This document shows positions 519 through 24,697 of a stretch of DNA of 26,802 bases, one piece after another. Below the pieces are notes generated by a model, which was not told where the DNA came from, did no database searches, and saw only the letters and a program-made list of their open reading frames with translations. The stretch spans positions 9,470 to 36,271 of the forward strand of contig CAZILO010000001.1 of assembly GCA_964540085.1 (NCBI GenBank), read 5' to 3'. How positions within the stretch are numbered: the first letter of the stretch is position 1; the number at the start of each line of letters is the position of its first letter. The position numbers and the translations under genes are program-made. This stretch comes from an uncultured Thermotogae bacterium. GTDB taxonomy: Bacteria > Bipolaricaulota > Bipolaricaulia > UBA7950 > UBA9294.

Positions 519-1376
519 CTATTTTTTGCCATTATCGTTATCGGAGCCATGATGTTTTTTGCCCTTGTTCGGAGGACAGGGATGCGAGTTGGGACCGGGG
601 TGTTCATTGCCGTTATGGCCTACTTTCCCACAGCTTGACGGTGGATGCTGACCCTTGTCCCCGGTAGCTGCGGCTCCATTTGCCGCCTGCCCGGGGGAGG
701 TCCCCTGTGCAATCGACGTTGTCAGTTCATCAAGCGCAGCGAGGATATCATCCGGTGTCGCACCGGTGCGGATAAGGCTGATCACCGTCCTGAGGGCGAT
801 CCCCGCGGGGACACCAGCCTTTATTACCTCACCCACCTTCGTTTGCACAGCCTGCATGTCGTCTTGGCTGTAACTGAACTTGTCGGCTGTTTGTAAGATC
901 GCGGTTTGAATCCCATACTGGCTCATGCCTGATCGCGCCATGGGGATCTTGGCAATGTCCCCGGTCGTGATCGCTGTCTCAAGGTAAGATTGCGCCGCGT
1001 TGAACCCGATGTGGTTGGTAAGCATAAGATCGAGGACAGAGCTGATCGCCTGAGCGGCGAACTTGGCCTGATGTACGTCGGTAATAGACCCCCACAACGC
1101 GATGTCGAGGAGAGCGTCCACGTCCGCGGGAGTCACCACCCCTGCGTCCACTGCTCCGGTAATCGTGACGACGAGCATGAACTGCGCGTTGGGGGGAAGA
1201 AGCGTGGTTCCCGTAACCCGGGTTAACACGCTGTCCAACGTGTATGAACCAGTCTGCGTGTATGAAGCGGTCTGCACGTCTTCTCCGATGGCGACGACCG
1301 CGCTCAGAGAGAGAATAGCGACCATGAAGAACACGATGGCTAACGATTTTGCTGATCTCGGTAGTCCGGCTGTCAT
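519..1376 (-). CDS. Exported hypothetical protein, predicted helical, with a low-complexity G/H/P/N/K-rich C-terminal tail
   Basis: Hydrophobic signal peptide (LAIVFFMVAILSLSAVVA). AAGGAGG SD at 1382-1388 favours the ATG at 1376 over the ORF-track GTG at 1382. Confidence 0.75.
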   Translation of the reverse strand: MTAGLPRSAKSLAIVFFMVAILSLSAVVAIGEDVQTASYTQTGSYTLDSVLTRVTGTTLLPPNAQFMLVVTITGAVDAGVVTPADVDALLDIALWGSITDVHQAKFAAQAISSVLDLMLTNHIGFNAAQSYLETAITTGDIAKIPMARSGMSQYGIQTAILQTADKFSYSQDDMQAVQTKVGEVIKAGVPAGIALRTVISLIRTGATPDDILAALDELTTSIAQGTSPGQAANGAAATGDKGQHPPSSCGKVGHNGNEHPGPNSHPCPPNKGKKHHGSDNDNGKK

Positions 1377-1436
1377 AGGCACCTCCTTTAGACCCGTGAC
1401 TTTGCGCCCCCGACTTTCGTCGGGTTTGCCCTTTCA
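1358..1436 (-). ncRNA. c-di-GMP-I (GEMM-I) riboswitch aptamer overlapping the SD, start codon and first codons
   Basis: Minus strand reads GGGCAAA-CCCGAC-GAAA-GTCGGG-GGCGCAAA-GTC-A-CGG-GTC...GAC-AG-CCG-GAC-TACCG. It has the GNRA-capped P1b, the G20/C44/A47/C92 equivalents and a complementary P2. P1 is weak. Confidence 0.85.
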
Positions 1437-1446
1437 TATTGTTTTT

Positions 1447-3535: not shown

Positions 3536-4069
3536 ATGAAAAGAACGGCGCTGGTATTAATCGTGGTTGTACTGGCTATATCGGCGGTTGTTGTCGCCCA
3601 GCCCGCGTCGCAGCCGGCGAACATTGGGGCGTTAGATCGATACCTGGGAGCTTGGCAATCAAGCGCAGTCATCAATCCCTGTGTATGGGTGCCCAGCGGT
3701 GAACAACAACACACGATCGTCCAAGTCAGTTTGTTCCTTAACAGGAAATTCCTTCAGATGGTGTCTCTCAGCGAACACCAGGAGAGCCTGAGCCTTCTCC
3801 GTTATGATTCGCAAAAAGACATATATCAGATGTGGACGTATGATTCTAACGGCAACACGGGGTACTGGACCGGCGTTTGGGACAAAACTGCGCAAACCAT
3901 GACCTGGAAATATGCGTTGACATCAATAGTGGGAATAACGGGAGTAATAGTGGATCGATTCACCAGCGCGGATGCGTACAACACCGTGATGATAATGACC
4001 GATAGCCGTGGCAACCTGTTGTTGGACGTACAATCAGAGAGCGTCCGCAAAAAGCCATTTCATGGTTAG
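3536..4069 (+). CDS. Exported beta-rich protein, DUF1579-like
   Basis: Signal peptide, then GAW...FL...YDSQKDIYQMWTYDSNG..GYWTGVWD, which resembles DUF1579. Confidence 0.6.
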   Translation: MKRTALVLIVVVLAISAVVVAQPASQPANIGALDRYLGAWQSSAVINPCVWVPSGEQQHTIVQVSLFLNRKFLQMVSLSEHQESLSLLRYDSQKDIYQMWTYDSNGNTGYWTGVWDKTAQTMTWKYALTSIVGITGVIVDRFTSADAYNTVMIMTDSRGNLLLDVQSESVRKKPFHG

Positions 4070-22096: not shown

Positions 22097-22133
22097 AAAG
22101 TAAACTCGAGGGCGGCCGTGACGACCGCCCTCG
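22097..22133 (-). terminator. Probable intrinsic terminator after the 22149-22670 subunit gene
   Basis: Minus-strand stem CGAGGGCGGTCG / CGGCCGCCCTCG followed by AGTTTACTTTT. Confidence 0.6.
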
Positions 22134-22148
22134 CTGAGGCGCAACTAG

Positions 22149-22675: not shown

Positions 22676-22728
22676 GCACCTCCTAATGGTTTAATTTTCG
22701 AGCACCTAGCAGCTCTGCCACCATTAGG
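22676..22728. repeat. 53-bp translation-initiation cassette, near-identical (49/53) to 23511-23563
   Basis: gcacctcctaatggtttaattttcgagcacctagcagctctgccaccattagg versus gcacctcctaatggtttgattttcgagcacctagcgactcggccaccattagg. Confidence 0.9.
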
Positions 22729-22868
22729 TACGCCACGGTAGCCCGACAATCTCACGTGAGATTCGCGGCTTTGCGCCCCAGGATCGCTCCTGGTTTGCCT
22801 TTTTCGTCGTCACCCATAGGCCGTAGCTTTGCGCCCCACCCTTTCGGAATGGTTTGCCCTTCAGTGCT
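22701..22868 (-). ncRNA. Outer c-di-GMP-I aptamer of nested pair B
   Basis: 5' half AGCACTGAAGGGCAAACCATTCC-GAAA-GGGTGGGGCGCAAAGCTACGGCC; 3' half GGTGGCAGAGCTGCTAGGTGCT lies about 100 nt downstream. P1 AGCACT/GGTGCT is slightly out of the canonical register. Confidence 0.7.
22735..22807 (-). ncRNA. Inner, complete c-di-GMP-I aptamer of nested pair B
   Basis: ACG-AAAAA-GGCAAA-CCAGGA-GCGA-TCCTGG-GGCGCAAA-GCCGCG-AATCTC-ACGT-GAGATT-GTCGGGC-TAC-CGT; canonical P1 register with G20. Confidence 0.88.
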
Positions 22869-22979: not shown

Positions 22980-23026
22980 GTGGTACAAATCTCCCTTCTG
23001 GTGAACCGAGACGGATAGAATCCGCA

Positions 23027-23052
23027 GGGCCGACAGGAATCCCCGCCGGCCC
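23027..23052 (-). terminator. GC-rich hairpin 3' of the 23074-23505 gene (terminator or mRNA stabiliser)
   Basis: GGGCCGGCGGG-GATT-CCTGTCGGCCC; two G-U pairs work only on the minus strand. The U-tract is poor. Confidence 0.45.
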
Positions 23053-23073
23053 CTTCGCTCTTCATCCGTTAGC

Positions 23074-23505
23074 CTACTTGGTAGTGACGGTGTAAGTAAC
23101 GATCGTGGCATAAGTACCGGGAGCCATCGCCCGCAGGTTAAATAAGGTGTAGTTTACGCCGACCTTAGCATCGTTCTTCCCATTGTACGTGGACAGACCA
23201 ACTTTCAGGTGGTCACTGCCGTTACCGGACAGGGAAACGGTAAGGGACCAACTGGTATTGCTGTACACGAACAGGGTGTTTGCGTTTTCCTTGGCAACTT
23301 CGTCGACACCTGCCGGAATTGCGCCAAAGTCGAATGCGGTGTCTGCGATCTTGAGCTCGACGAACCCTTGGATCGTCCAGCTGATCTTGTCCTCTACGGA
23401 GACAGAATTGCTATGATTATGACCATTGGCGAACCCGGCGAGCCCGATCATCGCCACTGCCAAACCCAGCACCAACAGACCTACGATAAGTTTATTCATC
23501 CTCAT
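23074..23505 (-). CDS. Exported pilin/WxL-like subunit
   Basis: Signal peptide; ISWTIQGFVELKI..FDFGAI, SNTSWSLTVS and C-terminal MAPGTYATIVTYTVTTK. AGGAGG SD supports ATG 23505. Confidence 0.7.
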   Translation of the reverse strand: MRMNKLIVGLLVLGLAVAMIGLAGFANGHNHSNSVSVEDKISWTIQGFVELKIADTAFDFGAIPAGVDEVAKENANTLFVYSNTSWSLTVSLSGNGSDHLKVGLSTYNGKNDAKVGVNYTLFNLRAMAPGTYATIVTYTVTTK

Positions 23506-23535
23506 TGAAAGCACCTCCTAATGGTTTGATTTTCG

Positions 23536-23723
23536 AGCACCTAGCGACTCGGCCACCATTAGGCAAGCTGCGGCAACCCGGCTGTCTGCTGTGAGACCCG
23601 TGGCTTTGCGTCCCGAGGTCACCCTCGGTTTGCCCTTATCACAACACCCCACACGGGGCTTTGCCTAGAAGGTCCGTAGCTTTGCGTCCCGCCCTTTCGA
23701 ACGGTTTGCCTTTTGTAGGTGCT
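23536..23723 (-). ncRNA. Outer c-di-GMP-I aptamer of nested pair C
   Basis: P1 AGCACCTA/TAGGTGCT (8 bp), J1/2 CAAAA then G20, P1b CCGTTC-GAAA-GGGCGG, GACGCAAA, P2 GCT-A-CGG-ACC / GGT-GG-CCG-AGT, then CGC containing the C92 equivalent. Confidence 0.85.
23567..23645 (-). ncRNA. Inner, complete c-di-GMP-I aptamer of nested pair C
   Basis: GTTGTG-ATAAG-GGCAAA-CCGAGG-GTGA-CCTCGG-GACGCAAA-GCCACGGGTCT...AGAC-AG-CCGGGT-TGC-CGCAGC; near-consensus. Confidence 0.92.
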
Positions 23724-23814
23724 TCGCTGAGGACGTAGTGCATTGCAGCAATTGAGCTGCAATCTTTAAAACAATGTGAATTTATACAGAGGGGAACAAG
23801 TAACCGAAAACTTT

Positions 23815-23954
23815 CGGCAGCCCGGCGATCTCCCGTTGATTTAGCATCCGTTATGTCCTTGAGTTAATAACCTCTAAGAACACTTAAGAACACTCGCAAA
23901 TCTGAGAGACCCGTGGCTTTGCGTCCCCTCCTTACGAAGGGTTTGCTTTTTTCG
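23815..23954 (-). ncRNA. GEMM-I aptamer with A at position 20 (candidate c-AMP-GMP variant) and a 73-nt P2 extension
   Basis: CG-AAAAA-A-GCAAA-CCCTTC-GTAA-GGAGGG-GACGCAAA-GCCACGGGTCTC...GAGAT-CG-CCGGGC-TGC-CG; position 20 corresponds to base 23947. Confidence 0.82.
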
Positions 23955-23989
23955 CTGTCTCGGTTCACTTGTCAATGACCATCGCTCTT

Positions 23990-23995
23990 ATTATA
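23990..23995 (-). promoter_or_regulatory. -10 element (TATAAT) at the head of the three-aptamer leader
   Basis: Perfect TATAAT 35 nt upstream of the A20 aptamer; -35 unclear. Confidence 0.55.
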
Positions 23996-24043: not shown

Positions 24044-24697
24044 TCACTTATTTGCCGGAGGAAACAAGTTTTTGGCGAGAAGGCTCTGCAATGAAGAGAG
24101 TTTTTCCAGTGCGGAGGCAATGCGGATGCGATACTGAATTGGAAACGGATCCGGCCGCTTGCTCCTGATCTTGGCCAGGTCTATCTTGGGAGTAGGGTCG
24201 GTGGCACGTTTCTCCGCGCTCAGGGAGACGTAATTAATCGCTTCGCGCGCCTTGAAAATTTCGGTAATTCCCTCCTCAGTAATGTTGACCGCATCGGCAA
24301 GTTCGCTTAGTGTGGGGAGATGGCCGGTTTCCCGAAGTAGGCGCGCCTCGGCCATCTCGAGTTGGCGGTTCAAATCCTGCAAAAACCGGGGAATGTATGC
24401 CTGATGCGCGTGATCGCGGATGTACTGTCGGATCTCGCCGGTGATCAAGTTCTTCGCGTACTCGGAGAATTCCTTACCCCGCGCGAGGTGGATGTTATAC
24501 ACCGCGTTCAATAGCCCGAGATAGCCGGCATGGAACAGCTCATCATGGGTAAATCCACTGTGGGCAAACGCGCTCGCGATTACAGTCTCCACCCACTGCC
24601 TCCCCCGCGCCAGCAGTTCATTGCGGGCGGATTCATCGCCGGCTGTCACCCGGGCGAGGAGCTCGTTGAGAGAAGCATCATCGTTGTTCATAGTCAC
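24044..24697 (-). CDS. Sigma-70 family factor (SigB/SigF/SigG-like) with regions 2 and 3 but lacking the region-4.2 HTH
   Basis: GDESARNEL, DELFHAGYLGLLNAV, FSEYA...ITGEIRQYIRD, IPR, LPTLSELADAVNI and VSL. The protein ends soon after RIASALEKL. The start is GTG 24697 or ATG 24691. Confidence 0.8.
   Translation of the reverse strand: MTMNNDDASLNELLARVTAGDESARNELLARGRQWVETVIASAFAHSGFTHDELFHAGYLGLLNAVYNIHLARGKEFSEYAKNLITGEIRQYIRDHAHQAYIPRFLQDLNRQLEMAEARLLRETGHLPTLSELADAVNITEEGITEIFKAREAINYVSLSAEKRATDPTPKIDLAKIRSKRPDPFPIQYRIRIASALEKLSSLQSLLAKNLFPPANK

Follow-up and report, generated by a model that had tools for sequence, protein, structure and literature searches.

A GEMM-I aptamer with A at position 20 ahead of two nested G20 aptamers in the leader of a Bipolaricaulota secreted-protein gene: a candidate relaxed-specificity sensor

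The DNA analysed here, which we call the window, is the whole stretch of 26,802 nucleotides (nt) taken from contig CAZILO010000001.1 of an uncultured bacterium of the phylum Bipolaricaulota (Thermotogae in its database label). Rfam finds in it five matches above threshold to the clan of GEMM-I riboswitch aptamers, which sense cyclic dinucleotides, and a sixth, weaker match. Three of the six aptamers sit between a sigma-factor-like gene (24697..24044) and the gene for a secreted protein of 143 amino acids (aa; 23505..23074), in a gap of 540 nt where the Rfam matches cover 23956..23812, 23720..23672 (partial) and 23643..23568 (complete). The first of these, aptamer 1, carries an A where the consensus of the family has G, and it is the subject of this study. 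All the features of the leader discussed below are on the minus strand, and its main components are:

23990..23995, minus strand: TATAAT, a −10-like box and probably the promoter from which the whole leader is transcribed
23959..23980, minus strand: invariant 22-nt 5' element GGTCATTGACAAGTGAACCGAG, which supplies the 5' strand of a helix P0 and is drawn by RNAalifold as a 5' hairpin
23812..23956, minus strand: aptamer 1, GEMM-I-type cyclic-dinucleotide aptamer (Rfam RF03167, covariation in P1b, census of positions 20 and 47)
23835..23904, minus strand: AT-rich stretch of about 70 nt inserted into the P1b loop of aptamer 1, which folds as an extension of P1b and gives an extended helix in the minimum free energy (MFE) fold
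23741..23764, minus strand: conserved hairpin GATTGCAGC...GCTGCAATG in the segment that separates aptamer 1 from the nested pair, with compensatory CG<->UA and GC<->AU changes, present with and without aptamer 1
23672..23722, minus strand: 5' half of the outer aptamer (P1 strand GCACCTA, G20 at 23710, P1a, 5' strand of P1b; partial Rfam match, 38 bits)
23568..23643, minus strand: inner aptamer (G20 at 23634), nested in the P1b loop of the outer one (Rfam 69.6 bits, E 9e-15; covariation in P1a)
23074..23505, minus strand: regulated gene, encoding a secreted protein of 143 aa that has a signal peptide and, in the AlphaFold model, an immunoglobulin-like (Ig-like) beta-sandwich

Aptamer 1 matches RF03167 over the full model (positions 1-80 of 80) with 63.8 bits and an E value of 4e-13, above the curated gathering score of 59, as expected for a GEMM-I fold. 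Its position 20, G in the consensus, is the A at 23947, immediately 5' to the opening GC pair of P1a (...GCGAAAAAA-GCAAACC); it is 26 nt away from the A after the closing GC (23920), which is the spacing of G20 and A47 in Vc2. P1a extends from 23941 to 23926 with a GUAA loop, A47 is at 23920, and the C92 equivalent is at 23817, within a GCC (23818..23816) aligned to G74-C75 of the model, so that both pocket bases, A47 and C92, are retained. Aptamer 1 lacks the G20 of c-di-GMP-selective GEMM-I aptamers (c-di-GMP, cyclic di-GMP) and has the combination of A20 with a retained C92 that is looked for in GEMM-Ib. A census by regular expression found G at position 20 of the other five aptamers of the window (23710, 23634, 22858, 22799, 1430) and A at position 47 of all six. 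Helix covariation of the kind expected of GEMM-I is seen among 11 orthologous leaders in P1b (RNAalifold columns 72-170, GC<->AU three times; 76-167, CG<->AU; 83-158, CG<->UA three times), while P1a in the same leaders shows one-sided changes only. The GUAA loop is accompanied by no recognizable receptor of the CCUAAG/UAUGG type in P1b, in contrast to the aptamer at 1440..1357.

The P1b insertion is present in the clade of leaders whose aptamer 1 has A20 and, in a diverged form, in a G20 orthologue (L033; related loci are cited by such handles), and is absent from L004, L007, L010, L011, L044, L046 and L052. In the window it contains, at 23872-23891 (minus strand), a perfect 10-nt tandem duplication, AGTGTTCTTA AGTGTTCTTA, of which L002 and L003 have a single copy; this is a recent length polymorphism of the distal helix of the aptamer. 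A word is also needed on the Rfam assignment, since the best model for four of the aptamers, including 22733-22808, 23568-23643 and 23812-23956 (minus strand), is c-di-GMP-I-GGC (RF03167). The GGC variant, which we take to be defined by G at position 47, resembles the window aptamers in its short P1b and in its P1 pairs. Those assigned to RF03167 in the window carry A, not G, at that position: they are not GGC variants, and the match reflects scaffold similarity only. Automated annotation would mislabel these A47 aptamers as the orphan GGC variant.

The history of position 20 was followed in a comparison set of 56 related loci, in which every aptamer core was tabulated, giving 93 distinct cores. 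The close syntenic loci come from metagenome-assembled genomes labelled Candidatus Bipolaricaulota, with a few labelled Thermotogae or Neomarinimicrobiota, and the 143-aa protein of the window is also encoded on a metagenome contig of hot-spring type. A47 is present in all 93 cores; at position 20, 80 have G and 13 have A. Four layouts of leader can be told apart: pairs whose outer aptamer has A20, pairs whose outer aptamer has G20, triplets with G20 throughout, and triplets in which aptamer 1 has A20. The last of these is represented by three distinct sequences, those of the window (near-identical to L001), of L002/L003 and of L009, and the proteins of this clade (L002/L003, L009 group) are 92-94% identical to that of the window. 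Nine other three-aptamer leaders (L004, L007, L010, L011, L033, L044, L046 with two, L052) have G20 in aptamer 1, and their proteins are 51-76% identical to the window's. The A20 leaders come from metagenome-assembled genomes (GCA_027076805.1; WFSM01, isolate S016_54), A20 outer aptamers occur in JALTFO01, JAGGSM01 and JAGGXO01, and genomes with G20 only are represented by GCA_054042905.1. Because these nine more distant leaders of the same layout carry G20, the A20 of aptamer 1 is a derived state that arose by a recent G-to-A change; conservation of A20 among orthologues of the same riboswitch, as looked for in GEMM-Ib, is not found here. The change is uncoupled from the P1b insertion, as L033 combines G20 with an insertion of comparable size. 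Within the A20 clade the core of aptamer 1 has diverged by 0-9%, like the neighbouring G20 aptamers, and the insertion by 13-25%, suggesting that the core has been under constraint after the change; one difference in L009, from G.U to A-U in P1b, is compatible with the structure.

A20 is not confined to aptamer 1. It also occurs in more distant genomes in nine distinct outer aptamers of nested pairs, on eight different compensated P1a helices; among these nine position 19 is variable and position 20 invariant, and the inner aptamer of every such pair has G20:

L012 2797, L013 2737, L014 1343, L015 1782 and 2795, L016 1672, L034 2243, L035 288, L036 2235 and L045 1632: A20 outer aptamers, always in the context ...CTACTAA[A/G]-A-GCAAACC

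A paralogous leader with a G20 outer aptamer is often found one gene downstream of the A20-outer leader (L012, A at 2797 and G at 3780; also L013, L016, L043). The G-to-A change at position 20 has occurred at least three times in this aptamer family and has been retained, which argues against pure noise, and A20 looks like a maintained state in this group. No second base was found to co-vary with it: each of the candidates considered (tetraloop, CG or AG bulge of P1b, U at −4) also occurs with G20. Two further observations concern the cores themselves. An inner-type aptamer with A20 lies at position 64 of L022, at the start of the contig, where its outer partner is cut off, and makes a third independent G-to-A context; and the inner aptamer at L044 2372 shares its P1a sequence (CCCTTCGTGAGGAGGGG) with aptamer 1, which suggests that aptamers have been duplicated or exchanged between leader positions.

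That all three aptamers of the window are carried by one leader of about 480 nt is well supported by the comparison of loci. A −10 box in one of four variants (TATAAT, TATATT, CATAAT, CATACT) lies about 21 nt upstream of the 5' element in some 40 distinct related leaders, and in the window the distance from TATAAT to the ATG (23505) is about 480 nt. Since a scan with the sigma-70 consensus called only the promoter of the second unit and left this box uncalled, its −35 being poor, the assignment of the promoter rests on conservation. Nearly all related leaders have the 5' element in identical form, whether or not they contain aptamer 1. As leaders devoid of aptamer 1 have the same promoter and 5' element, followed by a spacer, the covarying hairpin (GATTGCAGC...GCTGCAA) and the nested pair, we regard aptamer 1 as an insert within an established 5' untranslated region (UTR). 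The compensatory changes in the hairpin at 23741..23764 argue that the segment between the aptamers is transcribed RNA, and no conserved promoter was found between aptamer 1 and the nested (outer) pair in the orthologous leaders. Two candidates for an internal promoter, TATAAA (23792..23787) and TGCAAT, were rejected, because they are unconserved even in L002 (TATCAA for TATAAA) and have no fitting −35.

Downstream of aptamer 1 the two G20 aptamers are nested, because the P1b and P1 3' strands of the outer one (GGTGGCCGAGTCGC-TAGGTGC, 23556..23536) lie downstream of the complete inner aptamer. The downstream partner TAGGTGC covaries with the 5' strand of the outer P1 (GCACCUA/UAGGUGC versus GCAUCUA/UAGAUGC in type-I leaders). 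Between the inner aptamer and the gene, two further elements involve the Shine-Dalgarno sequence (SD):

23536..23563, minus strand: anti-SD strand CCTAATGGT (23563..23555), overlapping the outer 3' half GGTGGCCGAGTCGCTAGGTGC (23556..23536), from RNAalifold
23503..23525, minus strand: SD region ACCATTAGGAGGTGCTTTCAATG (SD 23518..23514, ATG 23505..23503), sequestered by two strands, with covariation at columns 276-502

In the RNAalifold consensus CCUAAUGGU and GAAGCACCU pair, with covariation, with the SD-containing ACCAUUAGG-AGGUGCUUU, the pairing of CCUAAUGGU with ACCAUUAGG being invariant in 11 of 11 sequences; both CCUAAUGGU and GAAGCACCU are also required for P1b and P1 of the outer aptamer. 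On this model ligand-driven folding of the nested pair should expose the SD, and it is reasonable to suppose that translation is gated by c-di-GMP through the pair. The architecture, in which a complete GEMM-I aptamer and a small covarying hairpin lie inside the P1b loop of another aptamer and share one SD-sequestering platform, is seen in the window at 23536-23722 and 22700-22867 (minus strand) and is kept in more than 30 distinct leaders (L002-L052). A first-pass annotation of this DNA had placed A in the first aptamer and G in the other five, which the Rfam alignment and the census confirm. It had also proposed a single leader of roughly 480 nt, with gating of translation by c-di-GMP; the distance from box to ATG and the fixed spacing of the −10 box and the 5' element bear out the former, the lack of a conserved promoter between aptamer 1 and the nested pair agrees with it at the level of sequence, and the covarying sequestration predicted by RNAalifold is in keeping with the latter.

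Aptamer 1 has a platform of its own, made of three elements that compete around the C92 equivalent and the stems of the aptamer:

23803..23818, minus strand: hairpin T (GCCGAA-AGTT-TTCGGT), which takes G74, C92 and the 3' strand of P1
23796..23809, minus strand: 3' strand of P0, TTTCGGTTACTTGT, which pairs with 23971..23958
23787..23799, minus strand: CU-rich tract TTGTTCCCCTCTG, a candidate anti-aptamer strand complementary to the 3' strand of P1a (AGGAGGGGAC) and overlapping the end of P0

The first-pass annotation had seen two of these and missed the CU tract. The alternative pairing that it proposed for AAGTGAACCGAGA (23970..23958) with TTTCGGTTACTT is real: it is P0, a duplex of −15.9 kcal/mol and thus far stronger than hairpin T, and it is present in the MFE fold of 23990..23780 (z = −3.4), where it closes aptamer 1. 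P0 was shown by per-sequence duplex calculations and by constrained folding, and complementarity of the post-aptamer strand UCGGU[U/C]ACUUG to the 5' element is found in 12 of 12 orthologous leaders, at −10 to −18 kcal/mol. The CU tract is likewise present in 12 of 12 orthologues; its duplex with P1a, also of −15.9 kcal/mol, is equalled by 3 of 200 shuffles. The P1a 3' strand is purine-rich (GAGGAGGGG) and unusually conserved, and tract and strand show compensatory changes between the paralogues L046b (GAGAGGGGG/CCCUCUCUU) and L007 (GAGGAGGGG/CCUCUCCUC). Constrained folding gives two alternatives, fold A, with P0 and aptamer 1, and fold B, with the 5' hairpin, hairpin T and the CU tract paired with P1a. 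The energy difference, A minus B, amounts to +0.7 kcal/mol for the window and stays inside +/-3.3 kcal/mol for 9 of 11 orthologues, a balance that looks like that of a switch tipped by ligand.

To our knowledge, riboswitches that sense 3',3'-cGAMP (cyclic GMP-AMP, also written c-AMP-GMP) have been confirmed only for Geobacter and a few relatives. What is known of their selectivity (PMC6140456, PMC6456294, PMC8835794, PMC9481103) bears on the A20 of aptamer 1. G20 contacts one guanine of c-di-GMP, and the equivalent A of Geobacter GEMM-Ib aptamers pairs with the adenine of cGAMP; the mutation A20G in Gmet_0970 flips selectivity (PMC6140456, PMC6456294). The Vc2 mutant G20A binds both c-di-GMP and cGAMP, and many natural A20 aptamers are bispecific, as A20 protonates to bind G (PMC6140456). 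In a natural G-to-A paralogue of Desulfobacca acetoxidans affinity for c-AMP-GMP was gained and binding of c-di-GMP became only slightly weaker (PMC9481103). A20 is necessary but not sufficient for cGAMP selectivity (PMC6140456, PMC9481103). Because the A20 precedents outside Geobacter bind both ligands, we would expect relaxed c-di-GMP/cGAMP specificity of aptamer 1, with strict selectivity possible.

Comparison with the known systems places aptamer 1 among GEMM-I variants as a somewhat unusual one, found in a phylum and an architecture that are both new. With Vc2 (RF01051, clan CL00126) it shares the core GCAAAC...GACGCAAAG, a GNRA-capped P1a (here GUAA), the A bulge of P1b, A47, C92 and a short P1; it differs in having A20 for G20, in a P1b that has an extension of about 70 nt and no recognizable 11-nt tetraloop receptor, in the long additional helix P0 that closes it and draws on the invariant 5' element of the mRNA, and in being one of three aptamers in its leader. 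The likeness to the c-AMP-GMP aptamers of Geobacter (GEMM-Ib: Gs1761, Gm0970) lies in A20 together with C92 and A47, position 20 setting the recognition of G or A (PMC6140456, PMC6456294), whereas aptamer 1 belongs to another phylum, has no link to exoelectrogenesis genes and no clear terminator platform, and has G20 orthologues. The closest precedent for the effect of the change is the cluster-3 aptamer of Desulfobacca acetoxidans, a natural G-to-A at the ligand contact among near-identical c-di-GMP-I paralogues in one locus (PMC9481103); that aptamer is paired with an adenosylcobalamin riboswitch and has its own terminator, and aptamer 1 is paired with two G20 aptamers and has no canonical terminator. 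Three GEMM-I aptamers in one 5' UTR ahead of a gene of surface or adhesion type are also known from Bacillus thuringiensis (Bc3-5, PMC4759541) and from 12 catalogued triplets (PMC9481103), but those are serial, have their own platforms and are reported to respond to c-di-GMP, while in the window two aptamers are nested with a shared translational platform and the first has A20. Our literature searches found nothing on riboswitches in Bipolaricaulota or Acetothermia and nothing on nested c-di-GMP riboswitches.

The reading that we favour, tentatively and with slightly less than even confidence, is that aptamer 1 is a working cyclic-dinucleotide sensor of relaxed specificity or shifted threshold, set in a two-fold switch that has no canonical intrinsic terminator. 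By precedent, its A20 pocket would accept 3',3'-cGAMP and still bind c-di-GMP; in a cell with c-di-GMP only, aptamer 1 would be a third sensor with a different threshold. It would toggle between the nearly isoenergetic folds, with fold A closed by the 12-15 base pairs (bp) of P0. In fold B hairpin T would take the C92/P1 strand, the CU tract would pair with the P1a 3' strand, and the freed 5' element would form its own hairpin. Ligand should favour fold A, masking the 5' element and freeing the CU tract, and fold B would do the opposite. Our best guess for the downstream effect is a changed fate of the mRNA, or a changed folding of the leader, through the 5' element and not through termination, with the nested G20 pair downstream opening the ribosome-binding site; the ligand preference of aptamer 1, the direction of switching and this effect are all inferred. 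Several points weigh against the proposal. In Geobacter aptamers A20 alone suffices for more than 1000-fold selectivity for cGAMP (PMC6456294). The A20 clade is shallow, with its three distinct sequences, and the argument from conservation rests on few substitutions; moreover, a G-to-A change in L009 removes hairpin T and one P1 pair, and could be early decay. P0 shows no double-compensatory changes, its 5' strand being invariant, and RNAalifold on the MAFFT alignment picked hairpin T over P0, which it missed because the 3' strand is misaligned between clades. Finally, the fold energies come from nearest-neighbour models at 37 °C, and at 60 °C fold B is favoured by 3.5 kcal/mol.

Other explanations have to be set beside this one. 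Aptamer 1 could be strictly cGAMP-selective, as in GEMM-Ib, with a c-di-GMP-selective nested pair behind it, so that the leader obeys two messengers; we hold this to be unlikely, though well short of negligible, and it would imply a GGDEF enzyme of the Hypr type or a CD-NTase. The intact A47 and C92 beside A20 speak for it, as does the flip of selectivity by the identity of position 20 alone in Geobacter (PMC6456294), and A20 is kept in the nine diverged outer aptamers, always with a G20 inner, while in the paralogous leaders of the same loci (L012 2797 versus 3780; L013, L016, L043) the G or A at position 20 is the only difference. Regarding a two-input gate, one transcript is supported and separate platforms for aptamer 1, with its own two states, and for the nested pair are predicted; an AND-like response of the whole leader, as the first-pass annotation had suggested, would depend on what output aptamer 1 gives. 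The combination would also be new among tandem gates: a catalogue of 347 doublets and 12 triplets of c-di-GMP-I contains no case in which c-di-GMP-I is paired with c-AMP-GMP, and the word 'nested' does not occur in it (PMC9481103). Against these points, the A20 of aptamer 1 is recent and orthologues of the same architecture use G. We know of no cGAMP synthase in Bipolaricaulota, whose genomes have been reported to encode only 1-4 GGDEF proteins, the Hypr signature not being mentioned (PMC10086821). The A20 variants tested outside Geobacter are bispecific (PMC6140456, PMC9481103). A motif search for GG[DE][DE]F found none in the window or in about 57 loci, which cover small parts of their genomes and are uninformative about the rest. 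For a test of two-messenger sensing, the A20-outer/G20-inner nested pairs are a cleaner system than the window itself.

Aptamer 1 might instead be a decaying relic, its G20A change and loop insertion being neutral or damaging in a redundant third aptamer while the nested pair alone regulates. A derived A20 in a shallow clade, the fast-evolving and length-polymorphic insertion, the additional change of L009 in P1 and hairpin T, and the existence of whole lineages without aptamer 1 (e.g. L012-L016, L019) would all fit. We nevertheless think decay quite unlikely, because the conserved core nucleotides are all intact and the core evolves as slowly as its G20 neighbours, the large insertion is evidently tolerated in the G20 orthologue L033, the balance of folds A and B and the CU tract are retained, and A20 is maintained in other aptamers of the family. 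Very unlikely, in our judgement, is the ligand-controlled terminator of the first-pass annotation, in which bound aptamer 1 would block the hairpin at 23818..23803 and thus form a transcriptional gate before the translational one. The hairpin itself is there, and includes the C92 equivalent (23817); it is picked up by a simple terminator scan and is in competition with P1 and C92 and, for UCGG, with P0, and a version of 4-6 bp is found in 11 of 12 orthologues and in the RNAalifold consensus. As an intrinsic terminator, which calls for a stable GC-rich hairpin with a U tract, exclusive of the aptamer and conserved, it is wanting: the calculated energy amounts to −6.0 kcal/mol at 37 °C but −3.2 kcal/mol at 60 °C, and the hairpin is followed by TACTTGTT, with 5 U in the next 8 nt (UACUUGUU). 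In the orthologues it has −3.7 to −5.1 kcal/mol and tails with 2-5 U of 8, mostly CACUUGCC-like, and in L009, a member of the A20 clade, the G-to-A change leaves −0.4 kcal/mol. Terminator-like sites in the region, moreover, are no commoner than in shuffles (3 against 2.2 +/- 1.7). The ends of genes in these loci (window 23030-23062 and 22105-22135, minus strand; gene 3' ends of L004-L052) bear GC-rich hairpins of 8-10 bp with no U tract, which reflect either termination without canonical intrinsic terminators in this lineage or stabilizing 3' structures.

The gene controlled by the leader has 49 homologues, none with a Pfam domain, and neither Pfam nor NCBIfam has a family for the protein. Its AlphaFold model (predicted local distance difference test score, pLDDT, 80) shows an Ig-like sandwich behind a disordered N-terminal stretch; a fold search of the PDB gave no significant match, the weak ones being to the TasA-like TLP-1a and to donor-strand pilins (E >= 2.6e-3). 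A fibre or matrix subunit is no more than a reasonable guess. Further along, the operon encodes other small secreted proteins as well as a surface protein of 970 aa that has SdrD-B, PKD and Ig-like domains. Past the gene there is a counterpart of the 5' element:

23001..23010, minus strand: 3' element CTCGGTTCAC, exact complement of GTGAACCGAG in the 5' element, 17 nt after the GC-rich hairpin downstream of the gene

The pair of elements is found in 52 of 56 loci; in most of them the 3' element is an exact complement of 10-12 nt located 8-19 nt after a GC-rich hairpin past the last gene of this kind, and the complement is flanked by an A-U pair in most loci, by G-C in L041 and by G.U in both L049 and L052. 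Pairing of the 5' UTR with the 3' UTR, with a role in mRNA stability, or a protein-binding site is possible. Recombination or inversion sites, or transposon ends, were considered and rejected, because the repeat has one orientation in more than 50 loci and its promoter-side flank is conserved; a DNA site tied to the next promoter was rejected because the distance to that −35 ranges between 5 and 27 nt.

Elsewhere in the window, one further aptamer (1357-1440, minus strand; 79.8 bits) has G20 and belongs to the classical type, its GAAA loop being accompanied by a CUAAAG/CCUAUG receptor; it precedes an open reading frame without a family and is unrelated to the fibre-gene leaders. The sigma-factor-like gene upstream of the leader (24044-24697, minus strand) is matched by models of the SigB/F/G type only over profile positions 2-180 of 227 and seems to have no region 4, the part that recognizes the −35; we note beside it that the promoters of the fibre-gene leaders have a conserved −10 and a poor −35. 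In the syntenic loci this gene is conserved beside one for a 396-aa protein without a family.

If A20 only tunes the affinity for c-di-GMP, the leader would be a natural example of threshold-setting in a multi-aptamer leader. It is possible, though improbable, that Bipolaricaulota use both c-di-GMP and 3',3'-cGAMP and read them with G20 and A20 versions of one aptamer wired into single leaders. Were this true, there would be two-messenger RNA logic gates for extracellular fibre-subunit genes, serial in the window and nested, with an A20 outer and a G20 inner aptamer, in its relatives, and repeated flips of position 20 in evolution would rewire which messenger each copy of the gene obeys. The family offers matched natural pairs that differ at the base recognizing G or A in otherwise near-identical leaders, both among orthologues (aptamer 1) and among paralogues (the outer aptamers), and such pairs bear on the use of cGAMP in a deep-branching phylum and on the speed with which the specificity of riboswitches is rewired.

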